From the NCBI GenBank assembly GCA_965248925.1, contig CBDFLE010000005.1, forward strand, positions 2,208,001 to 2,272,000: a stretch of DNA of 64,000 nt, read 5' to 3'. The notes below the pieces were generated by a model, which saw only the letters and a program-made list of their open reading frames with translations, ran no database searches and was not told the DNA's origin. Shown in pieces: positions 44,901 through 62,282 of this stretch. This DNA comes from Candidatus Multivoradales bacterium. GTDB lineage: Bacteria; Acidobacteriota; Thermoanaerobaculia; Multivoradales; J023. The first letter of the stretch is position 1. Each line of letters begins with the position of its first letter. The position numbers and the translations under genes are program-made.

Positions 44901-47900
44901 AGGTTGGAGACACAGACCTCCACTTTCTCGGCCAGATCGACCTGGCTGATATCGCCGTGAATGACCTCGACGATATCCTGCAAGCCTTCGCTGGCAATGC
45001 GCTGGCGAGCATGATCGGCAGCCTCTTCGACAATCTCCAGGGCATAGACCCGGCGAGCGCCGGCCGCCGCGCAGTAGCGTGCCCAGATCGCTTCGTGGCC
45101 GGTACCCACGTCGAGCACTACCTTGCCCGCCACGGTGGCCTGGATGGCACGGCGGTAGAGCTGGTTGCGACGCTCGTCCTTGACCATCGAGTAATAGAGC
45201 AGTTCCTCGTAGATCTGGTATTCACCGACGCAGGGCCAGATCTCGACCTGCTGGCTGCCAACCGCGGCGTCGGCAGTCGATCCACGAGTGGCGACATAGG
45301 CCACCAGCGTCTTGTCGGCGCCGCTGCCGCGGGCGACCACCGCGGCCCCCTCGATGGCGGGATGCTCGGTCAGCCGGGCCTCGATCTCACCCGGCTCAAT
45401 ACGCACTCCGCGCACCTTGATCTGCTGGTCGGCGCGGCCCAAGTACTCCAGCCGACCGTCGGCCAGCCGGCGCCCCCGGTCACCGGTCCGGTAGAGCCGG
45501 CCACCGGCACGCGGCGACCACGGGTCGGGAACGAAGCGCTCGGCGGTTAAGGCAGCGCGACCCTGGTAGCCCCGCGCCAAGCTCGGACCGGCGACGTAGA
45601 GTTCACCAGCCGCCGCCACCGGCAACGACTCCAACCCGCCATCCAACACCGACAAGCGCAGATTGCCCAACGGCCGGCCGATCGGCACGATTTGCCCCGT
45701 CCCGGCCTGGCCCCGGCGACAGCGGTTGTGACTGGCGTCGATCGCCGTCTCGGTCGGGCCATAGAGGTTGATCAGCTCCGCGTCCAGCAGTGACTCGAAG
45801 CGCCCACGCAGCGCCTCCGGCAGCGCTTCTCCACCGCTGAAGACCCGCCGCAGGCTGCCGCACGAAGCCGCCCCGACCTCCTCCAACCAGACCTGCAGCT
45901 GCGACGGAACGAGCTGCAGCACACTCACCCCGCGCTCCTCGATCAGCTGCCGCAAGTAAGCCATGTCCCGATGGCCACCGTCTCGCGCCAGCTCGATCGA
46001 GGCGCCGGCCACCAGCGGCGTCAGCAGCTCCCACAGCGAGGCGTCAAAAGACAGCGGGGTCTTCTGCAAGACCCGGTCAGCAGCCGCCAGCGGATACTCC
46101 GACTGCATCCACAACACCCGGTTGGCGATCGCCCGATGCGACACCATCACTCCCTTCGGACGGCCGGTCGAGCCCGAGGTGTAGATCACGTAGGCCAGCT
46201 GATCTGCCGCCACCGCCACCGCGGGGGCCGCCCGCTGGTGCCGCCCGGCAACCGCCTGGTGAAGCTCTATGACCGGCAGGTCGCCGCTCAGTCCGGCGGT
46301 TTGTGGTCGCGTCGTCCAGGCCGGGTCGACCAGCAGCAGCGAGGCGCCGCTGTCCTCGATCAGGTAGCTCAGTCGCGCCGCCGGATAGTCTGGATCCAGC
46401 GGCACCACGGTGCCACCGCCGCTCAAGATGGCCAGCAGGCCGACCACCATCTCCGGCGAGCGGACGCTGGACAATCCCACCCTGGTTTCCGCCACCATGC
46501 CCCGCGAGCGCAATAAGCTCGACAGCTGATCGACCCGCGACCACAGCTCGGCGTAACTCCACGACACGGCACCCTGCGCTACTGCCTGAAGGCTGCCGCA
46601 ATCAGCGCGCCGAGCGAGCAGCGGGCCGAGCAGCGAGTCAGCGCCGTAGGGCACCGCAGTATCATTCCAATCCCACAGCAGCTGGTGCCGCTGCCCGCGG
46701 TTCAACACCGGCAGCTGGTCGAGCCTCGAGTCGGGGTGCCGCAACACCGCCTGCAAAACGCGATCGAAATGGTCAAGCAAGCGCTGGATCGTCGTGCGGT
46801 CGAAGAGATCCGGGTTGAACACCGCCCCGGCGCGGAAGCGGCCTTCGGCCTGGTCGAGAGTCACGGTCAGGTCGAACTTCGACCCGGCGCCACCGAGTTC
46901 CAGGCGCTGCAACTCGATGCCGGCCAGCCGCAACGACTGGCCGTGCGGTGGTTGCAGGTCGAAACCGACCTGGAACAGGGGTGAATGACTCAGGCTGCGC
47001 GATGGGCGCAGTTCCTCGACCAGCTTCTCGAAGGGCACGTCCTGATGGGCGTGAGCGTCGAGCACCACCTCCCTTAAACGGTCGAGCAGCTGGCTAAATG
47101 GCAGCCGCTCGGCCAGCTCAGTGCGCAGCACCAGGGTGTTGACCAGGAAGCCAATCAGCCCTTCGGTCTCGAGCTGATGGCGATTGGCCACTGCCGTACC
47201 GACACTCAGATCGGTCTGCCCGGTGTAGCGCCACAGCACCGTCTTGAAAACCGCTAGCAAGATCATGTAAGGGGTCACGCTGCTGCTCGCCGCCAGCTTC
47301 TGCACCGCTGCCGTATCGCTGCTGATCAGCCGCGTCAAGACAGCGCCGCGGAAGGTCTGCACCGCCGGCCGCGGCCGATCGGTTGGCAGCTCGAGTAGCT
47401 CGGGCAAGCCAGCCAGCTGCTGGCGCCAATACCCCAGGCGCTCCTCGAGTATCTCCCCCGCCAACCAGCCGCGCTGCCAGATGGCGTAGTCGCCATATTG
47501 GATCGGCAGCTCGGCCAAGGCCGCCGGCCGCCCCCCTGCGAAGGCGGCGTAGAACTCGCTCAGCTCGCGGATCAAAACTCCCATCGACCAACCATCGGCG
47601 ACGATGTGGTGGAGGGAGAAGAGCACCACATGGCGTGCCTCCCCCAGACGCAGCAGCTGGGCACGAATCAACGGTCCGCGGCCGAGATCGAAGGGAGTCG
47701 CCGCTTCCAATCGGCCGCGGCGGCGCACCTCGGCGTCAGCGACGGTCGCCGACAGCTGCGCGAGATCCACTAGCGGAAGGTCGAAGGGAACCGCTGGCAG
47801 CACTTGCTGCCGAGGTTCCCCGTGACGGTCGGGGAACACCGTCCGCAGCGACTCATGGCGCCCGACCACCGCGCTCAGCGCCGCCACCACCAGCGCCGGG

Positions 47901-50900
47901 TCGAGCTGCCCTTCGAGGGCCAGGGCGGTCATCGAGTTATAGGCCGTATTTCCCGGCTTCAACCGATCGAGGAACCACAGTCGCTGCTGGGCAAAGGACA
48001 GTGGAATATCCTCCGCCGTGGAGCTCGCCTGGGCGCGGGGCTCGATCGGCGGCAAGACTTCGCCGCCGGTCTGCAGCAGTTCCTCAACCACCCCGGCCAG
48101 GCCCTCGACCGTGGGCTCTTCGAACAGCCTGCGCAACGGCAGCTCGACATGAAAGCCTCGGCGCACTCGGGAAACCAGCTGGGTGGCCAGCAGGGAATGG
48201 CCGCCGATCTCGAAAAAGCTGTCGTCGACGCTGACCTGATCGACCCCAAGGATGTCGCACCACATCGACACCATGAGTTCCTCGAAGGGTGTTCGTGGCG
48301 CGATTACCCGACGCGAGCCCTGCTGCTCTTCGGGGGCCGGCAGCGAACTCCAATCAATCTTGCCGCGCCGGTCGAGGGGCAGAAACGGCAGCGGAACGAT
48401 CGCCGACGGCAGCATAAAGTCTGGCAACCGTTGGGCCAGGAAGGCGCGCAGTTGGTCGGCTTCGAGCACCGCCGCGGCATCTTCCGGCAGGGCCGCCATC
48501 GCCAGCTCAGCAAGTCGCTCACCGGCGGGACCGACGATGCCGGGCCGCGAGGCGTAGAGATTGTAGCGATCGGTGCCAGTCAGCAGCTGGTCTTGTTCTA
48601 CCACCACCTCGAAGCCGTGCCCGGAGAGCAGCTCTCGCAGCTCCTCGACGCGCCCCGAGGTTGCCTCGTCAGGGGCGTCGTGGACCTCCATCACAACTTG
48701 CTGGACCTTGTCCCAATCGGCTTCGTCGAGGCCGGCCAGCACATCCATCTCCGCCCGCTGCACGTCGATCTTCAGCAGGTCAATGCGGTCGATTCCCTGC
48801 TCGCTAATAACCTCGCTCAGACGGCGCAGCCGGACGCTGTGCCGCTCTTCCCGGAAGCGACCGGCGAGAAGTTCATCCGCCTGCTCCAACAGCTCCCCCG
48901 CGGCGGCCTCCCCCTGCTCCAGCTCATTGCTGAGAAAGCGCTTGATCACCTCCACCTCACCCTCTGGGTTGGCGTAGTCGGCCGACCCCGACATCATCGT
49001 GTAGCGGGGGTAGAAGGTGAAGGTCTCGGAGCACTCGGAAGCCGACAAGCCGTACTCGAAGAGCCGCGTGCCACTCGCGTGGCGGGCGACATTGCGTCGC
49101 AGGCTGAGATAGATCGGCGGCAGGGGCTCGAAAGCGAAGATTCGCGCCGTCGGACAGGCGCGGCTGACGAACAGGGTGAACATGCCGATGTTGGCCCCGA
49201 TGTCGAAGACGCAGGCGTTCTCCGGCAGGGTAATGCCATGCAAGGTGTAACAGCGGTTGGCGAAGATCTCCTGATAGAGGTAGTCGGTTTCGTTACGGTT
49301 CTGATGCGCCACCACCAGGCCATTGGGCAAGGTGTGGAGGTCGGGATCGTCGGCAGCGGTCGAGGCGCCGGCAACATAGGCCACCAGGCGCGGATCGTCG
49401 GCGCGATCGTGGCGCAGCTGCACCGCGGATTCGGAGATCGCCGGGTGCTGGCGGAGCACTGACTCGATCTCGCCAAGCTCGATGCGGAAACCGCGCAACT
49501 TGATCTGCCGGTCGACCCGACCGAGAAACTCGAGTTCGCCGTCTTCGCCGTGACACACCCGGTCACCGGAGCGGTACAGCCGGCTGCCTGGTGCCGCCGC
49601 GAAAGGATCGGGGACGAAGCGCTCGGCGGTCAAGGCCGGCCGGCCGAGGTAGCCCCGCGCGACACCAGCTCCGGCAATGGCGAGTTCTCCGTCAATGCCC
49701 TGGTGGGTAAGCCGACTGCGGCGATCGAGCACATAAACCTGGATGTTGGCCAGCGGCCGCCCTAGGCTCGGTCCCGAGGGTCGCGCCGCCACCTCACGCA
49801 AGGTCGAATCGACCGTACACTCGGTCGGACCATAGACGTTGAAGACGCGCAGCCGCGGCAGATTCACCAGCTGCCCCCAGAGCCCGGCATCGATCCCCTC
49901 GCCGCCGAGCAACACCTTCGCCAACGGCAGCTCTGCTTGGTCCAGGCCCGCCGCCAACAACAGGCGAAGCTGCCCTGGGGTAGCGTCCAAGAGATCAATT
50001 TGCTGGTCTGTGAGTAGCCGCAGCAGCGCTTCACCGTCCGGCCGCACAGCCTGCGGGATGATGCATAGGGTGTCGCCCCAGGCCAACCGCACAAGCTGCT
50101 TGATCGAAGCATCGAAGGACAGCGGCGCGTTGAGGCTGATCCGCAGCGTCCCGGTGCGATCGGCATAAACCGCCTGTTCGAGGGCGTAGGTCAGATTGGT
50201 GACACTTGAGTGGCGCACCATGGTGCCCTTGGGCCGCCCGGTCGAGCCAGAGGTGAAGAGGACGTAGGCGAGCTGCTCAGCGGCGGTCGAGAGCGTCGGC
50301 GAAATCGCTGAACAGGCAGCGATCAGCTGCTGGTCGCGCCGCAGGTCGACCGCTTGATCGGCCGCCACCAACTCGGCCCCCGCCCCCCCCTCGAGGATCA
50401 CCAGCCGTGGCTCGATATCGGCCAGCATCTGCCGCAGTCTCTCGACCGGTTGATCTGCATCCAGCGGCACGAAGGCGGCACCGGCTTCGTGCACCGCCAA
50501 AAGGGCGATGATCTGGTCGACTCCACGCTCCAGCAGCAGCACGATGCGGTCTTCGCGCCGCACCCCGCGACGCAGCAGGTGGTGAGCGAGCCGGTGGGCG
50601 CGTTCGCTGACCACCCCGTAGCTGATCTCAACCCGACCGTCGAGCACCGCGACCACCTCGGGAAACTGCTCGGCCCGCTGGCGAAAGAGTTCGTGCAGAG
50701 GAAGTTGTGGAAACTCGCTGGCGGTCTGGTTCCAGCTTGCCACCAAGCGCTGGCGCTCAGCGCTCGGCAAGCCATCGATCCGTTCGATGGGCAGGCTTGG
50801 GGTGGCGGCCACTTCGGTCAGAATCTTGAGCAGCGAGTCGACTATCCGCTCGACCACCCGGCGGGGAAATCTGCCACCGTCATAGCTCAGTCGTAGATCG

Positions 50901-52042
50901 ACTACCGGCCCACTCCGGACACCGCCGAGCAGCAGCTTGAAGCTCTCGCTCAGTCCGCGGGCGCAGCCGATCCCAGCCATGGCACCGCCATCTTGCGGCT
51001 CGTCAAACTCAAAACCGAAGCCAAAACCGGACTCGCCCTCCGCCGCGCTCGGCGGCGGGCCGGCGAAATACTCCATCCACTCGAAGACACCTTCACCGGC
51101 ATCTCCCAATGCCTTGGCGAAAGCCAGCAGAGAGTCCCCTGGACGGAGCGTCGCAGCGATCGGAATCGAGCGTTCGAAGAGCCCGAGAGAAGTGGCCAGA
51201 TCGTCGTATTTTCGACCATCCAACAACCAGCCGAGCACCAGCTCGGTATCTCCCGACAGCCGCCAAAGCAAGGTTCTCCAGGCGGCCAGCAGGAGGGCGC
51301 TCCATTCGAGCTGGCGGTCTTCGAGCTGGCGATCGAGAACCGCGACCAAGTGCCGATCGAGCTGCCGGGTGACGCTTTCCAACTCCGCCGCGGGCGCCGC
51401 AACTTCGGTCTCGAACAGCAAGCGTGGGCCGGCCGCATCGATCTCCCGCCGCTGCTGCCAGAAGGCTTTACCCTGCTCGGCTTCTTCACCTTGCAGAAGC
51501 TCGTTGTGCCACTCGGCGAAGTCGGCATACTGCAAAATCTCGTCGGCGTCCTCGGTGGCGCCTTGGCCGGCGGCCAGGAGGAGCAGGATTTCGTTCGCCA
51601 ACAAACGCAGGCTGTAGCGATCGAGGCACATCAGAGGGGCGGTCAGGATCAGCGTCGAGGCGGCCGGTGAGCGATCGAACCACCCCGCCCGCAAGCCACT
51701 GCCGGAATCCTCCTGGCGGACCGCTTGGCGTTCGCTGAGCAGTAGCGCCGCTAGCTCTGGCGGCTTCTCGGAATCGAATTCGAGCCGTTCGAGGCACGGC
51801 GGGCGAGCGTCATCGATGACCTGCAGCGGCACGCTGACCCCGGCCGGCGCCTTGAACGAGGTGCGAAGGATCTCGTAGCGCTCGACCAAGGTGCCCAGCA
51901 CCTCTTGCAGGCCCTCAAAACTGACCCCAGGGTCAAGCTCGAGAGAGATCTGCGACCACCTGACGCCGGCCGAGCGCTGCCACTTCCAGAGCCTCTCCTG
52001 GAGCGGTGACAGGTGAAATCCTTCAACTACTTTCGTCGTCAT
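35915..52042 (-). CDS. Four-module NRPS (5375 aa): I-A(Glu)[FkbM MT]-T-C-A(Gln)[PRMT-like MT]-T-C-A(Dab-like)-T-C-A(Thr-family variant)-T-E
   Basis: The N-terminal C-like domain lacks HHxxxDG (PLMCLDRYS instead). Codes: DAKDLGVVDK, DAWQFGLIDK, DVWEMSADNK, DVWSVAMVHK. FkbM motifs VFDIGANIGMF and LLKIDVQRAE; second MT motif VVLDVGTG; terminal E motif HHLAVDGISW. The ATG lies 6 nt after the upstream TAG, with a GAGGAG RBS. Confidence 0.96.
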   Translation of the reverse strand: MTTKVVEGFHLSPLQERLWKWQRSAGVRWSQISLELDPGVSFEGLQEVLGTLVERYEILRTSFKAPAGVSVPLQVIDDARPPCLERLEFDSEKPPELAALLLSERQAVRQEDSGSGLRAGWFDRSPAASTLILTAPLMCLDRYSLRLLANEILLLLAAGQGATEDADEILQYADFAEWHNELLQGEEAEQGKAFWQQRREIDAAGPRLLFETEVAAPAAELESVTRQLDRHLVAVLDRQLEDRQLEWSALLLAAWRTLLWRLSGDTELVLGWLLDGRKYDDLATSLGLFERSIPIAATLRPGDSLLAFAKALGDAGEGVFEWMEYFAGPPPSAAEGESGFGFGFEFDEPQDGGAMAGIGCARGLSESFKLLLGGVRSGPVVDLRLSYDGGRFPRRVVERIVDSLLKILTEVAATPSLPIERIDGLPSAERQRLVASWNQTASEFPQLPLHELFRQRAEQFPEVVAVLDGRVEISYGVVSERAHRLAHHLLRRGVRREDRIVLLLERGVDQIIALLAVHEAGAAFVPLDADQPVERLRQMLADIEPRLVILEGGAGAELVAADQAVDLRRDQQLIAACSAISPTLSTAAEQLAYVLFTSGSTGRPKGTMVRHSSVTNLTYALEQAVYADRTGTLRISLNAPLSFDASIKQLVRLAWGDTLCIIPQAVRPDGEALLRLLTDQQIDLLDATPGQLRLLLAAGLDQAELPLAKVLLGGEGIDAGLWGQLVNLPRLRVFNVYGPTECTVDSTLREVAARPSGPSLGRPLANIQVYVLDRRSRLTHQGIDGELAIAGAGVARGYLGRPALTAERFVPDPFAAAPGSRLYRSGDRVCHGEDGELEFLGRVDRQIKLRGFRIELGEIESVLRQHPAISESAVQLRHDRADDPRLVAYVAGASTAADDPDLHTLPNGLVVAHQNRNETDYLYQEIFANRCYTLHGITLPENACVFDIGANIGMFTLFVSRACPTARIFAFEPLPPIYLSLRRNVARHASGTRLFEYGLSASECSETFTFYPRYTMMSGSADYANPEGEVEVIKRFLSNELEQGEAAAGELLEQADELLAGRFREERHSVRLRRLSEVISEQGIDRIDLLKIDVQRAEMDVLAGLDEADWDKVQQVVMEVHDAPDEATSGRVEELRELLSGHGFEVVVEQDQLLTGTDRYNLYASRPGIVGPAGERLAELAMAALPEDAAAVLEADQLRAFLAQRLPDFMLPSAIVPLPFLPLDRRGKIDWSSLPAPEEQQGSRRVIAPRTPFEELMVSMWCDILGVDQVSVDDSFFEIGGHSLLATQLVSRVRRGFHVELPLRRLFEEPTVEGLAGVVEELLQTGGEVLPPIEPRAQASSTAEDIPLSFAQQRLWFLDRLKPGNTAYNSMTALALEGQLDPALVVAALSAVVGRHESLRTVFPDRHGEPRQQVLPAVPFDLPLVDLAQLSATVADAEVRRRGRLEAATPFDLGRGPLIRAQLLRLGEARHVVLFSLHHIVADGWSMGVLIRELSEFYAAFAGGRPAALAELPIQYGDYAIWQRGWLAGEILEERLGYWRQQLAGLPELLELPTDRPRPAVQTFRGAVLTRLISSDTAAVQKLAASSSVTPYMILLAVFKTVLWRYTGQTDLSVGTAVANRHQLETEGLIGFLVNTLVLRTELAERLPFSQLLDRLREVVLDAHAHQDVPFEKLVEELRPSRSLSHSPLFQVGFDLQPPHGQSLRLAGIELQRLELGGAGSKFDLTVTLDQAEGRFRAGAVFNPDLFDRTTIQRLLDHFDRVLQAVLRHPDSRLDQLPVLNRGQRHQLLWDWNDTAVPYGADSLLGPLLARRADCGSLQAVAQGAVSWSYAELWSRVDQLSSLLRSRGMVAETRVGLSSVRSPEMVVGLLAILSGGGTVVPLDPDYPAARLSYLIEDSGASLLLVDPAWTTRPQTAGLSGDLPVIELHQAVAGRHQRAAPAVAVAADQLAYVIYTSGSTGRPKGVMVSHRAIANRVLWMQSEYPLAAADRVLQKTPLSFDASLWELLTPLVAGASIELARDGGHRDMAYLRQLIEERGVSVLQLVPSQLQVWLEEVGAASCGSLRRVFSGGEALPEALRGRFESLLDAELINLYGPTETAIDASHNRCRRGQAGTGQIVPIGRPLGNLRLSVLDGGLESLPVAAAGELYVAGPSLARGYQGRAALTAERFVPDPWSPRAGGRLYRTGDRGRRLADGRLEYLGRADQQIKVRGVRIEPGEIEARLTEHPAIEGAAVVARGSGADKTLVAYVATRGSTADAAVGSQQVEIWPCVGEYQIYEELLYYSMVKDERRNQLYRRAIQATVAGKVVLDVGTGHEAIWARYCAAAGARRVYALEIVEEAADHARQRIASEGLQDIVEVIHGDISQVDLAEKVEVCVSNLIGTLGGSEGAAVLLRQARRLMAPGGIFVPRRCVTRIAAVSLPEAVRRQPGFVATAVHYVERVFAEIGYPFDLRLCLRHLPSEYLLSAPGIFEELDFQSDFSAEFERRTILKVEHAGRCDGFLAWIELETAECLVIDSLRHEHSWLPVFIPAAESLELEAGDTFELTITAVLEADGIHPDYRLRGHLARPGSEPLPIELDSPFRRPGLGRSEFYRRLFPDAAPRLLAEPRGVGELTAKEVREHLEERLPPALVPTEVVFLDILPRTVGGKIDRQALVALAGVEDSGAAAPSTAAAPRSLLEEQVLDIWRGVLRVDSLGIHDDFFDHGGHSLLATRIISRVRRACDAAVEVRDLFEAPTVAELVRRLERTAPLPPLPPMALGKAAVGGRRRASFAQERMWLLQQLEPESASYNTPVAVAFEGRLEVAVLAESLRQLAERHQVLAARLVQIDGEIWQQAGADGLRMPLVDLQALRPADAELEAHSWLQRESARPFDLGAEPAARALLFRLGEERYQALLNCHHAVSDAWSMGILIRELAAFYRALAQAEPVALPPLRMSYSDFADWQRELLSGARLEAQLGYWLAQLDGAGARLDLPTDRPRPRALSDRGVTRRVSLPPALSAELLQLARQQGVTAFMLLLAAFETLLHRYTGQTDLCVGVPIAGRQHLESESLIGLFVNTLVMRGRFAGDPGFDELLLQVRRTALDAHTYQDLPFERLIEELLPRRDLSRTPLFQVMFELAHEASFERFDLPAVELHEVVLRTDTAKLDLAISMAEKQGGLVAAVQYSSDLFDHTTIERLWGHLGSLLRGIVASPTTAVSALPLLSPAERHQLAVEWNATEVETGFAGTILELFASHVDQTPSAIAVADGSTRLTYRELDRCSNAVAWTLVEQGVEREMPVALCARRRSAYLVALVGILKAGAVYLPLGPKQPTPRLLGLVERSRVAVLLIDDRRAELAEAVRSSPQLDTAVLVLDELVAAQRWSPPARPIDPSQLAYVLFTSGSTGLPKAAMLDHRGLLNQVWAKICDYRFSPSTVVAQSAAQTFDVSVWQLLAAILAGGRTEIFDDRLAFDPSRLLGAIEQRGVTILEVVPSFLRYALEELDGAGSKAPRLTALEWLMSSGEAIAPELCRRWLRRYPRIPIINAYGPAECSDNISQTFVRKIDDCRVERIVVGRPIANIDLSVLDRQLRRLPVGVVGELFASGVGVGRGYLAQPGRTAEVFIPDPYGEGQRLYRTGDLVKYCGDGNLDFLGRVDFQVKVRGQRIEPGEVDAVLQRQPEVVTAVTIARPEVGGSLSLMAFVVLANDAQVSAEELRKRVAASLPEAMVPSVVTVLERLPLNANGKIDRAALAALELAAPSTAATGGWAGGGFVEDLVSGIWSEVLALGEIGRQDDFFALGGHSLLATRVLSRLRKVLGVELELRAIFEDSTLAGFARRVAMARVAGEEPPAVPLQPVERGAGLALSFAQQRMWFIQQLDPQSSAYNIPFALELEGALDPRALRQAINQLRQRHETLRTRFALGGGGAVQVVEAALPLDLPLIDLSALSEPQRSAAARRHSEQLNRRPYDLSRAPLLRLQILRLGATQHWVVATIHHIAADGWSVSILIDEVAKLYEAAVAGRAAILPALPIQYADFAVWQRQWLSGAVLERQLEYWRSELAGAPALLDLPLDRPRPASWSFAGGSYPVRLPKALSEAARELGRSHGATPFMVLLTAFQTLLFRLSGQDDILLGTPIAGRRRLEVEGLIGLFVNTLVLRGRFGDQLSFGEALTAARETALAADAHQDLPFERLVDELQLVRDLAYSPLFQTMFAFQNVPGVELEVAELVIKGLQIDSQSAKFDLTLGLQETAAGVVGDLQYATDLFDRSTIARWVGQLEQLLAAAVAEPDRALTTLSLLSEAERQELVVEWSGQGVTFEFEGGLWEAFATTVELQPQAIAVNAGEVQLTYLELRDQAAELAGRLWAYGVRPGQSVGLFLERDALLVVAILATLRCAAVYVPIDPEVPAERLRFLAEDSACSLLLTSSSLRDRLPPLAGQVIEIDAATGPNPPTVPAWVTGDPGHAAYVIYTSGSTGVPKGVVVAHDQVLRLLRSSQQHFGFAAEDVWTLFHSYAFDVSVWEIWGALLHGGRLVVVPYWVSRSPDRFLELLQTEGVTVLSQTPSAFRQLISAESTLDRAVQHTLRYVVFAGEALDPSTLRGWLDRHGDSSPRLINMYGITETTVHSTFHRISAAEISAGFGSNVGRPLADLRIFLLDRRGHPVPQGVGGELVVGGAGVALGYLGRGALTASRFVPDALGGGSGARLYRSGDLARWLADGDLEYLGRIDQQVKVRGFRIEPGEIEALLREQPQVAAAAVMALREAGSADARLVAYLVAAADQELRLEELRQGLGERLPSYMVPAEFVVLERLPLTSNGKLDRRALPRPKTEERLAAETSYLAPETPVEHLLTSIWEEVLGLEKIGVEDNFFVLGGDSIQSIQIVAKVNEAGLKIAPRHIFLHQNIAELARVAESLGPPIADRGPVSGPVQLTPIQHWFFDQQLVEVDHFNQALMLEVRERLDPKILRRVFDTLVEHHDGLRLRFVRQDAGWQAHNLPPGEAAPFSVLDLSAVVDEQHPPAELLSAAADRAQRALNLGAGPLARVIWLDLGAERSSRLLLIIHHLAVDGISWRILLADLQRVYQQLAAGQPARLPPRSSSYQAWAERLTALAGSEALVGDGDFWLSRGQSQAGRLPRIHRASTHSEAGQSTTVSLDPEQTEVLLHGLPEDLAVQTQEILLAAILEALATWMGSRIVQLDLEGHGREDVGDDIDVTRTVGWFTTIYPVSFDLRRCRQPMAILRQVRERLRSVPRRGLSFGLLRYLRTDESGHGIAAIAPSEVLFNYLGQLDRVLEAESSFVQAAESTGPQRSPLQKPSHSLEITAKVADGRLTVSWNLAGESGDHGALERVAGGFLKQLGKLIDVASEAERPEPTPADFPLAKLDAGQLENVLGRFGKVGE
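35990..37330 (-). other. C-terminal epimerization domain
   Basis: LTPIQHWF, HHLAVDGISWRIL, LEGHGRE, RTVGWFT, FNYLGQ and a TPADFPLA tail. The next gene starts with a DCL-type C domain (EDIYPLSP). Confidence 0.92.
44230..45250 (-). other. PRMT-like SAM methyltransferase interrupting a Gln A domain (between A8 and A9)
   Basis: WPCVGEY...YSMVKDERRNQLYRRAI...VVLDVGTG...VYALE...VCVSNLIGTLGGSEG...CDGFLAW...SWLPVFIP. This resembles the PRMT Rossmann plus beta-barrel layout. Confidence 0.7.
48550..49340 (-). other. FkbM-family methyltransferase interrupting a Glu A domain
   Basis: LPNG...ETDYLYQEIF...VFDIGANIGMF...FAFEP...LLKIDVQRAE...QVVMEVH. Confidence 0.85.
50760..52042 (-). other. Interface-type pseudo-condensation domain
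   Basis: EGFHLSPLQ start, catalytic His motif replaced (TAPLMCLDRYS), QYADFAEW retained. The upstream gene supplies a terminal, intact C domain. Confidence 0.72.
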
Positions 52043-52048
52043 CTTGGG

Positions 52049-55000
52049 CTACTCCTCAGGGGACCTGTCGGGGCTCTGAAGCGCTCCCTCGCCGACCGCC
52101 GGGTCGGTCTGGGATTCACTTCGCGCTGCCGCCACTACCTTGCGCCTGCGAATCTTGCGCAGCCGTCTCGAATTCACTGCCTTGCGCTGCTGCCGCTCTA
52201 GGCGTTGCCGCTGGCGCTCGCTCTGACTGAGCCACTCGACGGCATCGAGGCTCTGCTCGGGATCACCGCAGAGGGAACTCAGCAAGGTCTGGTAGCGCGC
52301 CTGCCAAGACTCGATCGTCGACCGGTCAAATAGATCGCGGGCGTAGGACCAAGTCGCCGCCAGTCCATCGCCGCGGTCACTGATCCACAGAGTCAAGTCG
52401 TAGCGCACCAGGTCCCGCTGGCGCTCGACCAGCAGCAGTTCCAGATCGTCGATCAGACGCTTCTCAAGCGGTGCGTTGCGCAGTCCGAAAGCGACCTGGA
52501 AAATCGGCGTCACCCCCGGCTGGCGGGGCGGTCGCAGCTCCTCGACCAGCCGATCGAAGGGCAGGCTCTGATGGCTCAACGCGGCCATGGTCTGCTCCCT
52601 AACGGATCCCAGAAGATGGCTGAAGCTCGCCGCGCCATCGACCTCGATGCGCACCGGCAGCATGTTGATGAAACAGCCGACCAACCCTTGAATCGCGGCG
52701 TGCTCCCGGCCGGCGACCGCGGTGCCGACAATCAGATCCCGCTGCCCGGTGAGGCGATAGAGCAAGACCTCGAAAGCCGCCAGCAGGGTCATGAAGAGGG
52801 TGGTGCCGGAGCGCCGGCTGAGGCGCCGCAGCTCCACCACTAGAGCCGGCGGCAGCGACTGGCAAACACGCCCCCCCAACTGGCTAGCAACCGCCGGCCG
52901 TGGACGATCTGTGGGCACCGCCAGCAACGGCAGCTCGCCGGCCAGCCGGTGGCGCCAGAAGGCCAGGTTGCTGGCCAGCAATTCGCCCTGCAGGGTCTGC
53001 CGCTGCCACGCCGCATAGTCGGCGTACTGCAGCGGCAACTCCGCCAGCGGAGCCGGCTGGCCGTCGGCGAACGCCTGGTAGAGCTCGGCGACCTCCGCCA
53101 CCAACTGCTCGATCGACCAGGCGTCACTGACCACATGGTGGAGGGTGAAGAGAACCTGGTGATCATCGCCGGCTAGCTTCACCAAGGTCACTCGCAGCAG
53201 CGGCGCCCGCTCGAGATCGAAGGGCCAGCGGGCTTCTTGAGCCGCCGCCCGACCGGCCTCTCGCTCACTGCCAGCCAGAGTCGATAGGGCCGACAGATCA
53301 ATCATCGGACAGCGCATCTCGACCGTCGAATGAATGATCTGCAGCGGCTCTTCGCGGTCGAAGCTGGTGCGCAAGACCTCGTGCCGTGCGACCGTGTGGC
53401 GGATCGCGGCATGGAGGATCGGCAAACGCAGCGGACCGCGCAAACGCACCGCCGAAGGAATGTTGTAAGCGGCGCTGGCGGGCTCCATCCAATGCAACAC
53501 CCAGAGCCTCTGCTGGGCGAAAGACAGGGCCAACGGGCGGTCGCGGGGGACCTGCCGCAGCGGCACTGGCCGCCCGCCGCCGGGATTTCGAGTGGCCTGG
53601 TCGACCCGTTCCGCCAGCTCGGCCAGAGTCTGAGCACGAAAGAACTCGGCCAGGCTCACCTCGAGGTCGAACAGCGACTGCAAGCGGACCAACATTTGGG
53701 TGGCCAAGAGCGAATGACCGCCGAGGGCGAAGAAATTCGCCTCGACCCCAACCTCTTGGCGGCCCAGCAGCTCGCACCACAGGCCGTGCAGGATCTCCTC
53801 GGTGGCGGTCCTGGGAGCCACCGAAGCGGCATCCCGCGGCGCCGACGCCAGCAAGGCCCGGCGGTCGATCTTGCCGCTGACCGTCCGCGGCAGCAGATCG
53901 AGCTCGACCCAGGAAGAGGGCACCATCACCGGATCGAGGTGCAGCAGCAGATGGTCCCTAACCGCCTCCGTGCTCACCCCTTCAGCCAGCACCAAGTAGG
54001 CGCGGAGAGCGTTGAATCCCACGGCGTCCAGAACCTCCACCAAGGCCACGTCGACGACTCCCCGACAGCCCCGCAGGACATTCTCCACCTCGCCCAGCTC
54101 GACCCGGACACCGCGAATCTTGAGCTGCTGGTCGCGGCGACCGACGAACTCAAGTGCTCCGTCGGCGTGCCGCCGCGCGAGGTCGCCGGTGCGGTAGACG
54201 ATGTCCGCTGGCTGGTCGGTGAACGGATTCTGGACAAACACTTGCTGGGTCAGCTCCTGGTCGTGCAGATAGCCGAGAGAACGGTAGGGAGTGCGGATCA
54301 AGATCTCCCCCACCGTGGCCTGAGGGCAAGCCCTGTTCGCCGTATCCACCAACACCACCGCCGCGCCCGGCATCGGCTGGCCGAGAGGGATGAAACGGCG
54401 TCCGCCATCGGCCGGCGCGACGCGGTAGAAGAGCTTGGTCATGGTGGTCTCGGACGGACCATAGAGATTGACCAGCTGCACCCTCTCGCCGTAGCGCTCG
54501 ACGAATCTCTCGACATCGCTGGGCAGGAGGACTTCGCCAGCGAGCAGCAGGTAGCGCAAGCTGGCCAGAGCAGGAGCCTGCCGGTCGGGTAGGCCGAGCA
54601 GCGACCGCAGCAGCGAGGGCACGCAGTGCAACACCTCGACCTGGGCTCGATCCAGCCATCGGGCGAGGGCTCGGGCGTCGCGAATGGTGGCCCGTGAACG
54701 TGGCGCGCAGACCGTGCCACCCACCGCCAAGGCAACAAAAATATCTCGCAGGCAGGCATCGAAGGCCGGCGAGGCCAACTGACTGACCCGGCAGCCGGGG
54801 CCAAGCCGCAGCTCTTCGATCTCCCAGCGAACGAAATGGTCGATCGCTTTCAGCCGGCCAGTGATCGCTTTAGGTTGGCCGGTGGAACCCGAGGTCATGA
54901 AGACATAGCAGAGATCGTCCCCCTGCCACTCATGCTCCTCCGCCAGCAACGCCGCGGCACTGCCCGATGGGATCGCCGGATCGGCCCAGGACCGTAGGCG

Positions 55001-55414
55001 AAGATCCTCGGCAGAGGCTGCTTGCAGATTCTTGATCAGGCCCTGACGCAGGTCGCCATCCAGCAGCCAAGAATGAGGCCGCGCCTGGGTGCACATCGCT
55101 CGCAAGCGGGACGGCGCCGTGGCCGGGTCGATCGGCATGAAAGCACATCCGGCTCGCAGTGCCGCCAGCAGGCCGACGATCAAGCGATCCGGCCGAGTGG
55201 TCAGCAGGGCCAGCAGATCCCCCGCCTGGGCGCCGCCGGCGTGCAACTCGTCGGCCAGTCGTGCCGAACGCCGCTCCAGCTCAGCGTAGCTCGTCACCAC
55301 CCCCTCGAGGTCGATCGCCGGCTCGTCCGGATAGCGCCGCGCCGACTCGAGGAAAAGCTGGTGAACGAACCCAGATGCCAGCCGAGGGTCGCTAGATGCT
55401 AGGCCGCCGATCAT
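52049..55414 (-). CDS. Split-module NRPS A-T-C (about 1121 aa), A domain of the DxRH-code (acidic/iso-linking-like) type
   Basis: A3 TSGSTGQPKA, A5 YGPSETTMTK, T GGHSL, C HHVVSDAWS, and an Arg-rich C-terminal tail. The track starts it at 55429, but the ATG at 55414 forms an ATGA overlap with the upstream stop and has GGGAGGG 6 nt upstream, so I prefer 55414. Confidence 0.93.
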   Translation of the reverse strand: MIGGLASSDPRLASGFVHQLFLESARRYPDEPAIDLEGVVTSYAELERRSARLADELHAGGAQAGDLLALLTTRPDRLIVGLLAALRAGCAFMPIDPATAPSRLRAMCTQARPHSWLLDGDLRQGLIKNLQAASAEDLRLRSWADPAIPSGSAAALLAEEHEWQGDDLCYVFMTSGSTGQPKAITGRLKAIDHFVRWEIEELRLGPGCRVSQLASPAFDACLRDIFVALAVGGTVCAPRSRATIRDARALARWLDRAQVEVLHCVPSLLRSLLGLPDRQAPALASLRYLLLAGEVLLPSDVERFVERYGERVQLVNLYGPSETTMTKLFYRVAPADGGRRFIPLGQPMPGAAVVLVDTANRACPQATVGEILIRTPYRSLGYLHDQELTQQVFVQNPFTDQPADIVYRTGDLARRHADGALEFVGRRDQQLKIRGVRVELGEVENVLRGCRGVVDVALVEVLDAVGFNALRAYLVLAEGVSTEAVRDHLLLHLDPVMVPSSWVELDLLPRTVSGKIDRRALLASAPRDAASVAPRTATEEILHGLWCELLGRQEVGVEANFFALGGHSLLATQMLVRLQSLFDLEVSLAEFFRAQTLAELAERVDQATRNPGGGRPVPLRQVPRDRPLALSFAQQRLWVLHWMEPASAAYNIPSAVRLRGPLRLPILHAAIRHTVARHEVLRTSFDREEPLQIIHSTVEMRCPMIDLSALSTLAGSEREAGRAAAQEARWPFDLERAPLLRVTLVKLAGDDHQVLFTLHHVVSDAWSIEQLVAEVAELYQAFADGQPAPLAELPLQYADYAAWQRQTLQGELLASNLAFWRHRLAGELPLLAVPTDRPRPAVASQLGGRVCQSLPPALVVELRRLSRRSGTTLFMTLLAAFEVLLYRLTGQRDLIVGTAVAGREHAAIQGLVGCFINMLPVRIEVDGAASFSHLLGSVREQTMAALSHQSLPFDRLVEELRPPRQPGVTPIFQVAFGLRNAPLEKRLIDDLELLLVERQRDLVRYDLTLWISDRGDGLAATWSYARDLFDRSTIESWQARYQTLLSSLCGDPEQSLDAVEWLSQSERQRQRLERQQRKAVNSRRLRKIRRRKVVAAARSESQTDPAVGEGALQSPDRSPEE

Positions 55415-58400
55415 CCTATTCCCTCCCAAGGGGCGGTGAATTCGTCCTCCACGATCGGCCCCTCGGTCCCCGCTTCGGCACTGATCGACAACCTCGACAA
55501 GGGCTGATCCAGATGCTGCGGCAGCTGCTCCAAAAGGCTGACCAGTCGTTCCAGCATCAGCGCGACAGTGGCCCGGTCAAAGAGATCCGTGCAGTACTCG
55601 ATGGCCAGAGCCACTCCCCCTGCGGTCGGTTCGACGAAGACCGTCAGATCGAATTTCGAGACCGGGAACTCCGGCTCGATGCTGGTCAGCTCCACCTTGG
55701 CCAGGGTGACGACCTCCTGCGGTGTGTTCTGTTGCACCAGCATGATCTGGAACAGAGGCGGCAGCGCCGGATCGCGCTCCACCCCGAGTTCGTCGACCAG
55801 GGTTTCGAAGGGCAGATCTTGATGGGCGTAGGCGCCCAAGCACACCTGACGAACCCGGTCGAGGAACTCAGCGACCGTCGGATCACCCTCGAGATCGACC
55901 CGCAGCACCAAGCTGTTGATGAAGAAACCGACCAACTCCTCAAGTTCGCGGCGAGTGCGGTTGGCGACCGCCGTGCCGAGCACGATGTCGCGCTGCCCCG
56001 AGTAGCGCTCGAACAGCACCGCCAGGGCCGCCAGCACCGCCATGAACAGGGTCAGACCCTGGTGCCGGCAGAGCCGCTGCAACGCCATCGCCACCGCCAC
56101 CGGCAGGCGCAGCTCGACGCGGCCTCCCCGCAGTGTCTGCTCGGCCGGTCGCGGCCGGTCGAGGGGCAGCGAGTGAACCGACGGAAGGCCGTCGAGCTGG
56201 GCTTGCCAATAGTCCAGCTGGCGCTGCATCTCGGCTCCTGCCAACCAACTTCTCTGCCAACCGGCGAAGTCGGCATATTGGATCGGCAACGGCGCCAGCG
56301 GCGACCTCTCACCAGCTGCAAAAGCGTCATAGAGGGCCGTCAGCTCGCGCACGAAGACCCCGGTCGACCAACCATCAGAGACAATGTGGTGCAGGTTCAC
56401 TACCAACAGATGATGGTCGGCTGTCAGGCGCACCAGAATAGCCCGCAGCAGGGGGCCTTGGCTGAGGTCGAAGGGTCGCCCCACCTCGGCCGCCGCCAGG
56501 ACCATCGCCGCTCGCCAGGCGGCCGACGGTGCCAGCCCACTCAAGTCCGCCCGCCGGATGGAGCTGGCTGCCGCGGCGGCGATGATCTGCCGCGGCTGCT
56601 GGTCGATTAGCTCGAAAGTGGTGCGCAGCACCTCGTGGCGATCCACGATCTCGGCCAGCACTCGATCCAGCACCCCGGCATCCAGCGCCCCGCGCAGCTC
56701 TAACACCGCCGGGATGTTGTAGGCCGCGCTGTCGGGCCGCAGGCGCGACACCAACCAGAGCCGTTGCTGGGCGTATGACAGCTGTGGCGCGGCAGCTTGA
56801 GAGCGCGGCCGCAAGGGCTGCCGATCCGCCTCGGAGAGCTTCGTCAACCCGGCCAGTCGCGTCGCCAGATCGTCCACTTCAGGGTGGTCGAAGAGCAGCG
56901 ATAGGGGTGCGTCGACGGCGAGCGCCCGGCGCAGCCTGGAGAGCAACTGAGTGGCCAGCAGCGAGTGACCGCCAAGGTCGAAGAAGTTGTCGTCACCGCC
57001 AACCTCTGGAGTCCCCAGAAGCTCGGCGTAGAGACCGGCGACAATCTCAGCGATCGGCGTCTTGGGCCTCCCCGACTGGCACCGACTCGCCGGCCGCTGG
57101 GGCTCCGGCAGGGCACCACGGTCGAGTTTGCCACTCGGCCGACGGGGCAGCTCATCGAGCAGCGTAAAGGAAGCCGGCACCAAATAACTTGGCAGCCGGC
57201 GACCGAGGATCGCCGGCAGCTCGGGGATCAACTCGCGGGTTAAGCGACCCAAGAGAGGATTGTTGGTCAGCTCGCGGCGGCTAGGGCGCAAACCCTCAGC
57301 CGCGCTGGTAGCCGGTCGCGTGGCAGCCGGTCGCGTGGCAGCCGGCGCCGCCAGCCGGGTGATCCGCAAGTCGAATCGATCGAGTCCCAGGGCCGAGGGC
57401 GACAAGCTCACTCGCTGGCCGGATCGCTGAGCGAGCCCCCAGAGATCTTCCGGCTCGATGCCAGGCCCCGACTCAGCAACCAGCCGCCGCAGATCAGCGG
57501 CCGTTTCCTCGACCGCTGCGGCCCGCATCCGCTCAGCATTGGCGACCGCCCCGACCAGCCGGGCGTTGGCAACGCCCAACCGCTCGAGGCCGGCAAAGTC
57601 GGCGGCGTCGATCAGCTCAGCGAACTCCTCGACCCACCCCGGCTCACCGTCCCAGCGCCGGCAGTCGGCGACCGCCGGGCGGCGACGGTGATCGAGATAC
57701 AAGACGACGTCATAGCGAAAGCGGTTGAGTTCGTTGTGCAGCCGGCCACGCTTGAGCTGCGCCTCGACCTCGGCAATCCGCGGTAGCAGGCCGGACAAGT
57801 GATCGAAAAACGCTGGCGCCACCACCAACTCCTCGTCCTGCGCGACGCTCTTAGCCACCTCCTCGGAGAGTTCCGCAGCAGCCACTCCGTCAGCCGCCTG
57901 GAAGAGCTTGACCGAAGCGTGGAAGGCGCTCAGCAAGCGAAGATCGCGGACATCGCCGACGAATATCGAGCCACCTGGGGCCAGCACCCTGACCGTTTCG
58001 CTCAGAACTTGGCTGAGGTAGTCGGAGCTGGGGAAATACTGCACCACCGAGTTGAGCACCACGGTGTCGAATTCGCCGCTGGCAAAGGCCCCCAGGTCAG
58101 CCGCCGAGCCTTGCCGGGCGGTCACTGAGTCCAGCCCCAAGCGGTCGGCGTGGTGGGTGACGTAATCGATCACCGCGGCCGAGAAATCGATCCCGACATA
58201 GACTTCGCATTCGGCCGCCAGGCGAAACAGCAGCAGGCCAGTGCCACAGCCGATTTCCAGTACCCGACGTGGACCGAGGTCGCGGATCCGCTCGACCGTT
58301 CCATTGATCCACTCGTCCATCTCCGGCCGGGGGATCTCTTGACCGCTGTAGCTGCTCTGCCAGCCGGTTGTGTTGTGCAGCGGATCGAGCTCGGCATGGT

Positions 58401-61194: not shown

Positions 61195-62282
61195 GGCCGG
61201 CCGCTGACCTCCTCGCCAATCTCGATCTGGCTATCGATGTCCTGCCACGAACGCGGCTCGGCCATGCCGACGGCAATCTTCCGCGGCCCCGCGAAGGGCT
61301 GCCGGCCGTGCGCCACCAACATGTTGTCGAGCAGCAGAATGTCTCCCTTCTGCCAAGGAAAGGCGACGGTCTCGGCGTGGTATGCCTGGCGCAGCTCCTC
61401 GAGAGTCTCGGCGGCGATCGGCCCACCGTCTCCGAAGTAGCTGTTGCTCGGCAGGTCGGCCTCCGAGAACTCCTCCAACAAAGCGTCGCGGGCGATCGTT
61501 TCAAGGGTCGAGACGTTGAAGATCGTGGCGTGATTGAACCAAGTCAGCTCGTCGGTGACCGGATGCCGGGCGATCGCCGAGCGAACTGCTTCAGTGCGCA
61601 AACGCCCTTCCGCTTTCCACTCGACCGCGATCCCATGACCGGCGCAGTAGTCCTCGACCACAGTTCGGTCTTCGGTCTGGAAAACGGTCTGCCACGGCAG
61701 CCCGAAGCCATCTCCGAAATTGCGGCGATACATCCATTGGCGTTCTGAGAAACGTTTTTTAGTGGCCTCGGACAGCCGCTGATAAACCCGTCGGCAGTCG
61801 GCGATCGGCGTCTCACCACCGGTTGCCGGTGGGATCACACAGAAAAAGAAAATTCTCAGCGGAAAGCTACTCTGATAGGAGTTTTCGTTGTGCAAGAAGA
61901 TCGTCTGATCGGCCGGAAAGTCGGTCGAAGAGTAGATCTTGCCAGTGATCTGGGAACGCGGCGAGGAGCGCTCCTTGTACTCCAAAGCGCTACCGGACAC
62001 CGCTTCGATAAAATTTTCGAACTGCTCCTCGGTGTCGACATCAAAACCACGGAAAAGGATACCTCCGTGATGACAGAGCTTCTCCTGCAGCAGCGGGCGT
62101 TGGCGGCGCGCCCACTCGATCAACGCCACGCTGCCCGGCTCCGCCGGCTCGATCAGCAATGGCAGGAGTCCTTCTGCGAACAATGGCCGCATGGTCACCA
62201 GCTCGCCCGAGGTCACGCTCATGACCCGGCGGCGGGAGCCGCTGATTCCCGCCTGTAGGTGTTTGGGCAATGGTTTCTTCAT
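61191..62282 (-). CDS. TauD/TfdA-family Fe(II)/2-oxoglutarate dioxygenase, SyrP-like aminoacyl-PCP beta-hydroxylase
   Basis: 363 aa with GGILFRGF, SSPRS, FLHNENSY (H-x-E), GGETPIAD, WFNHA and LLLDNMLVAHGR (distal His). This motif set is typical of SyrP/AspH-like NRPS-associated hydroxylases. GAGGA RBS upstream. Confidence 0.93.
   Translation of the reverse strand: MKKPLPKHLQAGISGSRRRVMSVTSGELVTMRPLFAEGLLPLLIEPAEPGSVALIEWARRQRPLLQEKLCHHGGILFRGFDVDTEEQFENFIEAVSGSALEYKERSSPRSQITGKIYSSTDFPADQTIFLHNENSYQSSFPLRIFFFCVIPPATGGETPIADCRRVYQRLSEATKKRFSERQWMYRRNFGDGFGLPWQTVFQTEDRTVVEDYCAGHGIAVEWKAEGRLRTEAVRSAIARHPVTDELTWFNHATIFNVSTLETIARDALLEEFSEADLPSNSYFGDGGPIAAETLEELRQAYHAETVAFPWQKGDILLLDNMLVAHGRQPFAGPRKIAVGMAEPRSWQDIDSQIEIGEEVSGRP

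Follow-up and report, generated by a model that had tools for sequence, protein, structure and literature searches.

The subject of this work is a nonribosomal peptide synthetase (NRPS) gene in a 64-kb window, the whole stretch of Candidatus Multivoradales DNA that we analysed (G000:C5:2208001-2272000), in which all large genes lie on the minus strand. The gene encodes a 5375-aa protein whose first part forms a self-contained unit, here called the cassette. The cassette consists of a condensation-like domain without a catalytic histidine (Q in AmbE nomenclature), an adenylation (A) domain with a glutamate-type code, an FkbM-family methyltransferase (MT) inserted in that A domain, and a thiolation (T) carrier domain. 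Judged by domain order and alignment, it is an in-line copy of the front half (Q-A-MT-T1) of AmbE, a synthetase of methoxyvinylglycine (AMB) biosynthesis. The explanation that best fits our data as a whole, to which we give a probability of about 0.6, is that an AmbE-type front end operates here within a longer assembly line, where Glu bound to the T domain would be hydroxylated by TauD-type oxygenases, O-methylated by the embedded MT and then retained in the peptide. The front end of AMB synthesis is not peculiar to Pseudomonas; it is one member of a large cassette family.

The open reading frame (ORF) of the 5375-aa NRPS spans 35915-52042 on the minus strand with its ATG at 52042. As this start coincides with the upper coordinate of the cassette, the cassette corresponds to the N-terminus of the protein (Table 1). 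The Q domain matches the Pfam Condensation family over aa 10-314 with 133 bits, compared to 290-360 bits for the other condensation (C) domains of the window. In the translation, the position of the catalytic HHxxxDG motif reads APLMCLDRY, with no His, while D141 is invariant across 24 aligned cassette proteins. The A domain carries the core motifs A3 (TSGSTGRPK at aa 597) and A8 (GRVDRQIKLRG at aa 841), and its ten Stachelhaus positions, read both by eye and by script, are DAKDLGVVDK. This corresponds to the classical Glu code 'Glu(2)/SrfA-A'. The identical code is common to 32 of 150 listed proteins, the query included, and near variants occur in most of the others. The MT insert, placed between motifs A8 and A9, matches PF05050 (Methyltransf_21/FkbM) over aa 947-1145 with 62-66 bits (cut-off 22.7) and the NCBIfam model TIGR01444 (fkbM_fam) with 102 bits (cut-off 37.7); otherwise the NCBIfam scan returned only generic NRPS names, and it gave no match for any of the three TauDs of the cluster. 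In an alignment of the same 24 proteins K1228 of the A domain is nearly invariant, and the query MT keeps every invariant column, including D947, G949, A950, N951, I952 and G953 of the DxGANIG motif. Since all of these columns are retained, the MT looks active.

The AMB pathway gives these features a precedent. The synthetase has the order Q-A-MT-T1-C-T2-TE, with TE a thioesterase (PMC10880069, PMC4357302). AmbC is described as hydroxylating C3 and AmbD C4 of T1-bound Glu, after which the MT methylates the 4-OH, before the AmbB C domain condenses (PMC8968710, PMC10880069). The N-terminal 461 aa of AmbE are described as a stretch of unknown function (PMC4357302). Our comparison was made with P0090, an AmbE-architecture synthetase that stands in for the AmbE sequence: no library representative of 2050-2200 aa had K1230, S1286, S1819 and S1958, P. 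aeruginosa was absent from the 75 loci fetched around MT relatives, and 14 control genomes gave no useful match. P0090 and two further proteins among the best 150 MT matches (P0106 and P0082), all three 2096-2130 aa long, read C-like, A, FkbM, T, C, T, TE, and their codes are DAKDLGLVNK (P0090), DSKDMGLVNK (P0106) and DSKDLGVVNK (P0082). Among structures, AmbE 7R9X is the best match of the P0090 C domain (E 1e-92), and McyA comes second. Residues 6-1320 of the cassette protein align with residues 13-1317 of P0090 at 36% identity overall, with a low value for Q, a higher one for A and 54% for the MT. K1228 and S1283 of the cassette correspond, with nearly the same numbering, to K1230 and S1286, two residues that were mutagenised in AmbE (PMC4357302).

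The likeness extends beyond the protein. An A-T-C protein (g4) lies directly upstream of the cassette protein, as AmbB would, and the cluster holds two TauD-type oxygenases whose clades, in AmbE-like loci, stand in the places of ambC and ambD. There are also clear differences. The cassette protein lacks the dehydrating C domain, the second T domain and the TE of AmbE, and an ordinary LCL-like C domain leads instead into four further modules of the protein, in a line of about 26. The oxygenase pair is distal here, where ambC and ambD adjoin ambE, and the A domain of g4 (DARHLALMTK) does not have an Ala-like code.

To define the family, we relied on the MT. A search with the insert (301 aa) returned 1825 cluster representatives at E<=1e-30 among 1.84 billion, of which the best 149 were broken down by architecture: 29 were fragments without an A core, 83 had a Glu-type code (D[AGS]K[DE]xG...) and 37 had other codes. 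In 77 of the 83 Glu-code relatives a His-less C-like domain stands at the protein N-terminus, typically with LPALCAD at the motif position; of the rest, one has an internal His-less domain, five are too short to tell, and none has HHxxxD. The 37 other-code relatives are mixed, comprising 15 with normal C domains (Ser-, Thr- and Asp-type codes among them), 11 with His-less domains (codes such as DAWQFGLID and DLTKIGHIG) and 11 too short to tell. A search with the Q domain only found just distant relatives (<=36% identity) mixed with ordinary C domains, and for this reason it was the MT-anchored analysis that defined the family. The closest relatives come from metagenome-assembled genomes (MAGs) of Thermoanaerobaculia and other Acidobacteriota, and are runs of single-module Q-A(Glu)-MT-T-C proteins of about 1830 aa. 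Two variants of the architecture were seen. In P0007, P0008, L019 and L024 two FkbM MT domains stand in tandem inside one A domain, visible as two Pfam stretches in P0007 and P0008 and as two MT matches about 850 nt apart in L019 and L024. In three loci from Pyrinomonadaceae and Acidobacteriota MAGs (L016, L018, L023), behind TauD, TauD, Q-A-MT-T comes an ORF of 2300-2380 aa that matched none of the NRPS-domain queries used and may be a polyketide synthase (PKS) module extending the modified Glu.

The domain that follows the cassette bears on the fate of its residue. The best Protein Data Bank matches of this C domain are Txo2, Txo1 and TycC (E 5e-110 to 2e-75, with Txo2 at 5e-110), and AmbE 7R9X did not reach E 1e-20 in the same comparison, so that its assignment as an ordinary LCL type holds. 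Pfam scans of the whole protein and of overlapping 600-aa pieces place three more A-T modules after it, and then an epimerase-like or C-like end; an A domain comes directly next, and no T2-TE was found behind the C domain. Among the relatives, the C domains downstream of Glu-code cassettes separate cleanly into 19 of LCL-like and three of AmbE or dehydrating type, with nine absent or unread. If the module proceeded as in AmbE, dehydration and decarboxylation would lead to an AMB-like vinylglycine, and the front-end cassette and both TauD clades are indeed the same as in the AmbE-like loci. Because the dehydrating C domain is absent, we regard this outcome as very improbable, and the modified Glu would be expected to stay in the peptide.

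We then asked which oxygenases accompany such cassettes. Of the 75 loci, the 60 with an MT match >100 bits were used and the 15 weaker ones were dropped. TauD genes are present in 18 of the 24 Glu-code loci versus one of the 36 others. In eight loci a tandem TauD pair lies directly upstream of the cassette gene, as in ambC-ambD-ambE, and in all loci inspected the TauDs are preceded by a gene with a C domain at its end. All three loci with a dehydrating-type C domain (L011, Isosphaeraceae; L022, Micromonospora; L035, Novosphingobium) carry the pair. An A-(T)-C gene precedes it in L011 and L022, and the complete order in L011 (A-T-C, TauD, TauD, Q-A-MT-C-A-T, TE) mirrors ambB-C-D-E. The likeness to AmbE that had been proposed from the sequence alone is therefore borne out twice over, by collinearity with P0090 and by relatives that sit behind tandem TauD pairs as in ambCDE. 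The other elements of that description, namely the pseudo-C domain, the A code, the FkbM-family MT inserted in the A domain and the ordinary LCL domain that comes next, are all confirmed by the results above.

The cluster has three TauDs for two Q-type modules, and all three keep the HxE...HGR motifs. One, TauD_w, is in the window; TauD_b and TauD_a form a tandem pair between the transporter genes of the cluster, about 18-20 kb past the low end of the window. In a maximum likelihood tree of 33 rows, clade 'a' (100/96) contains TauD_a and all second-of-pair genes, while clade 'bw' (98/95) contains TauD_b, TauD_w and seven of the eight first-of-pair genes; the eighth, L019_5233, falls just outside as the sister of clade bw (91/89). 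The order of TauD_b and TauD_a is thus bw then a, as in the pairs of other loci, and by their places in the AmbE-like loci clade bw would hold the AmbC position and clade a the AmbD position. TauD_w and TauD_b, both in clade bw, are 53% identical. The sequence-only reading had pointed to a TauD partner; the TauD gene in the window is present as read, but it is more likely the partner of its neighbour g3, because it overlaps the start of g3, which has a His-less domain of its own and a Gln code. TauD_w and g3 also follow the usual 'TauD then Q-module' syntax and are translationally coupled. As clade-a TauDs and Glu/FkbM cassettes each occur just once in the genome, we assign, with moderate confidence, the distal TauD_b/TauD_a pair to the cassette and TauD_w to g3.

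Taken with the domain order, motifs and homology, these neighbourhood statistics suggest a course of which we infer the substrate, the reaction order and the regiochemistry. The A domain would load L-Glu onto S1283 of the T domain. TauD-type Fe(II)/2-oxoglutarate oxygenases of the cluster, most likely the distal tandem pair, would hydroxylate the tethered Glu, and the embedded FkbM-type MT would then O-methylate the new hydroxyl. The terminal C domain of g4 (HHVVSDA), in an AmbB-like position, would join the residue of g4 or the growing chain to the modified Glu. The residue would stay in the peptide, most likely as 3-hydroxy-4-methoxy-Glu and otherwise as a mono-methoxy-Glu; the former is the likelier since oxygenases of both the AmbC and the AmbD position are in the cluster. 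The interpretation drawn from the sequence alone is partly supported overall: its course, with a TauD hydroxylating T-bound Glu and the MT capping it, is kept as a proposal, but its plain methoxy-Glu gives way to 3-hydroxy-4-methoxy-Glu as the favoured product.

Several observations weigh against this proposal. Six of the 24 Glu-code loci show no TauD, several of them being short contigs, and the relatives are phylogenetically related, so that neither the family counts nor the locus counts are independent events. The assignment of AmbC-like and AmbD-like oxygenases rests on gene order in three AmbE-like loci, not on sequence comparison with AmbC and AmbD. The TauD pair, which is not adjacent to the cassette but lies about 55 kb from its start, could serve other modules, and the closest relatives (L001, L003, L005, L006, L009) have a single TauD before two cassettes, from which one hydroxylation may be the rule for LCL-type cassettes. 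Some MT relatives combine Asp-type codes with normal C domains and lack a TauD within 10 kb (L059; P0014, P0063), and the FkbM-family enzyme EreM is described as N-methylating peptides (PMC9811515).

The alternatives differ in the product. If only one oxygenase acts, whether TauD_w or one of the distal pair, the MT would cap its hydroxyl to give 3- or 4-methoxy-Glu with no free hydroxyl, which is the product first proposed from the sequence. The closest LCL-type relatives, with one TauD of bw type (L001, L003, L008) or of a type (L005, L006, L009) before two cassette genes, fit this, as does the presence in the window of TauD_w, a member of the same clade as TauD_b. Yet the contigs that hold L001 with L005 and L003 with L006 carry both TauD types in one cluster, so a single adjacent gene does not show that a single enzyme acts; moreover, TauD_w overlaps the start of a gene with its own Q-type domain, and three TauDs are available for two Q-type modules. 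We consider a single hydroxylation unlikely, though well worth keeping in view.

A second alternative is a side-chain methyl ester, which would arise if the MT acted on the gamma-carboxylate of Glu that had not been hydroxylated, with the TauDs serving other residues. The Asp-type relatives without TauD and the distance of the TauD pair from the cassette would both suit such a reaction. FkbM-family enzymes, however, are known for acting on hydroxyl groups, TauDs track the Glu-code loci closely, and none of the 83 Glu-code relatives has a catalytic C domain in place of Q. The MT is also 54% identical to that of an AmbE-architecture synthetase, and the MT of AmbE methylates a hydroxyl (PMC10880069). 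Given the tight TauD link and the homology to an O-methylating MT, the ester, which had been named as the alternative from the start, is improbable, and we keep it only as a rival. Lastly, an MT insert that is inactive, or that N-methylates as EreM does, would yield hydroxy-Glu or N-methyl-Glu; the retention of all invariant MT columns, with the DxGANIG motif among them, and the close kinship to the MTs of AmbE-type synthetases make this very improbable. Hydroxylation followed by O-methylation of T-bound Glu remains the reading that we prefer.

What, then, does the His-less Q domain do? We considered whether the N-terminal domain could be a starter or a normal C domain and rejected this, because the His motif is missing and the preceding protein supplies the true C domain. 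Across the genome, Q queries outscore ordinary C queries on five domains; each stands at a protein N-terminus, and the five are confined to the two TauD-containing clusters. Within the cluster studied here, only the N-termini of the cassette protein and g3 resemble each other (about 120 bits, 31% identity, E 3e-39), compared to 14-51 bits between the Q domain and the other C domains of the cluster, and both proteins are preceded by a protein that ends in a catalytic C domain. Q always occupies the point at which the oxygenases and the carrier have to come together with the C domain that ends the upstream protein. Among the relatives, Q3-like and Q5-like subtypes showed no consistent pairing with the TauD clades.

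Siderophore interface (I) domains offer a parallel. They are said, in work by Reitz et al. in PNAS in 2019, to be paired with stand-alone TauD-type beta-hydroxylases and to position the hydroxylase on Asp modules. They too are His-less C-like domains directly before the A domain of the residue that is hydroxylated on the carrier, and their presence too tracks TauD genes. They reportedly differ in that their residue is Asp, whereas the codes here are for Glu and Gln; in that the Glu unit here adds an O-methyltransferase; and in that Q invariably begins its protein and follows one whose last domain is C. Interface domains are also named in the antiSMASH 8 paper, and a profile for them is part of that program (PMC12230676).

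We also predicted the complex between Q (aa 1-445) and TauD_a, using alignments of 24 rows for Q and 12 rows for TauD_a. The score was 0.52 in all three runs, compared to 0.00 for the best of three controls; at least 73% of contacts are shared between runs, and the partner pLDDT (predicted local distance difference test) is at least 81. Of 157 solved complexes, 116 reach the mark applied to such scores, as do 2 of 215 mismatched pairs, and scores that pass at 0.60 or under come from only 18 of those 157 complexes and from both passing mismatches. The predicted complex therefore brings a small increase in the odds of pairing, and the weakness of this support belongs with the points against our proposal. 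Collectively, these observations suggest that the Q domain does not condense and is probably a docking platform for oxygenases. More tentatively, as an idea that may well prove wrong, Q would be a recruiting platform for carrier-acting TauDs, Q-A(Glu)-FkbM-T with AmbC/AmbD-type oxygenases would be an ancient, portable hydroxy-methoxy-Glu cassette, and AMB would be a specialised offshoot that added a dehydrating C domain.

Table 1. Coordinates of the cassette, its domains and the neighbouring genes. Positions are those of the window, except where a contig prefix (C5) is given.
Feature	Position	Strand	Residues and details
Cassette, whole Q-A-MT-T unit	48080-52042	(-)	residues 1-1321 of the 5375-aa NRPS
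Q, N-terminal condensation-like domain without catalytic His (interface-like)	50708..52042	(-)	aa 1-445
A domain core through motif A8	49358..50686	(-)	aa 453-895; code DAKDLGVVDK; Pfam AMP-binding 453-799
FkbM-family MT insert of the A domain, after A8 and before A9	48473..49357 (Pfam core 48608-49204)	(-)	aa 896-1190
Remainder of the A domain	48323..48472	(-)	aa 1191-1240, read from the translation; A9 LPDFMLP, A10 RRGKID at aa 1226, with K1228
T domain (carrier)	48092..48271	(-)	aa 1258-1317; Pfam PP-binding 63 bits; phosphopantetheine serine S1283 in FFEIGGHSL
Downstream C domain, ordinary LCL-like	46676..48013	(-)	aa 1344-1789; HHIVADG; Pfam 361 bits
g4, A-T-C	52049..55429	(-)	1126 aa; ends 6 nt before the cassette gene; A code DARHLALMTK; Pfam
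g3, His-less C-like domain, A with class I MT insert, T, C	55411..61194	(-)	1927 aa; A code DAWQFGLIDK; Pfam and code
TauD_w, TauD-family oxygenase	61191..62282	(-)	363 aa; PF02668 170 bits; overlaps the g3 start by 4 nt
TauD_b	C5:2188964-2190148	same as NRPS genes	tandem with TauD_a; outside the window
TauD_a	C5:2187871-2189079	same as NRPS genes	tandem with TauD_b; outside the window

Together, g3 and TauD_w (55411-62282) probably make up a module for hydroxylated, methylated Gln; g3 reads LPAMAAD at the HHxxxDG position of its N-terminal domain. The class I MT insert of g3 (57160-58482) and that of module 2 of the 5375-aa protein (44063-45400), both on the minus strand, have no detectable mutual similarity (best E 0.64), although both sit in A domains with the identical code DAWQFGLIDK; they may carry out different methylations.

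Calling ORFs along the contig and scanning the flanks with Pfam, we find that these genes belong to one assembly line, which starts with a fatty-acyl-AMP-ligase-like domain and carrier at C5:2295770 and ends with a T-TE at C5:2193433. Its seven NRPS proteins (5836, 2651, 1927, 1126, 5375, 5795 and 11033 aa) hold 26 A domains in the domain scan, with predicted residues rich in Gln, Ser and Thr, and the cassette NRPS is the fifth NRPS protein of this lipopeptide assembly line. Downstream of the NRPS genes come a MacB/FtsX permease gene, the tandem TauD pair and an ABC exporter. Two features of the 11033-aa protein deserve mention. Asp235 binds the alpha-amino group of an A-domain substrate, and module 4 of this protein (5761-7338, minus strand) has the code TMPKIGHV-, without Asp235; its substrate may be an Asp-like acid without a free alpha-amine. 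Both in other genomes and in the C6 cluster described below, similar codes of the form xxxK[IV]GHVG without Asp235 recur beside Q-type domains and FkbM MTs. At residues about 8641-10164, outside the window, two consecutive modules have C domains that both score 370.3 bits and share the A code DVGD--LIN, which suggests either a very recent tandem module duplication or an assembly repeat.

Elsewhere in the same genome, a second FkbM-type MT, 47% identical, occupies aa 2594-2879 of a 5091-aa ORF in an NRPS/PKS-like gene (G000:C5:1533742-1549014, minus strand), with no readable A core before it and no TauD nearby. Another cluster (G000:C6:5142992-5180393) contains three proteins with Q-type N-termini, which precede A domains with the codes DAWQYGLID, PA-KVGHVG and DLTKVGHVG. 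One of the three directly follows a 7268-aa NRPS whose C-terminus is a fused TauD domain, and a stand-alone TauD at C6:5099142 is the sister of TauD_w in the TauD tree.

Both halves of the proposed chemistry have a counterpart in kutzneride biosynthesis, where KtzH is said to contain an O-methylating interrupted A domain and KtzO and KtzP reportedly hydroxylate carrier-bound Glu. That system shares with the cassette an FkbM-type MT inserted in an A domain and TauD-type hydroxylation of T-bound Glu; the difference is that its two reactions are said to fall on different residues (O-methyl-Ser and 3-hydroxy-Glu), whereas both are proposed here for the same Glu. Two Allokutzneria loci, L054 and L067, have 36% and 32% identity to the MT. 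That kutzneride contains beta-OH-Glu is noted in the literature (PMC7100376).

In the open-access literature searched, neither an in-line cassette nor a methoxy-Glu residue in a finished peptide is described. We know of no characterised nonribosomal peptide with a hydroxy-methoxy-Glu residue. Most family members are used in-line, which predicts a hydroxy/methoxy-Glu building block that isolated peptides have yet to reveal. In genome mining, the cassette offers a rule by which the modified residue can be predicted and distal TauD genes can be paired with their modules. How AmbC and AmbD are recruited is presented as an open question in AMB biosynthesis (PMC8968710), and this locus and its relatives provide a testable answer on both the function of the AmbE Q domain and the recruitment of its oxygenases. 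If the portable-cassette idea is true, the cassette would place hydroxy-methoxy-Glu in numerous peptides and peptide-polyketides, as yet uncharacterised, from Acidobacteriota, Sorangium and others, with four or more such residues in some clusters.

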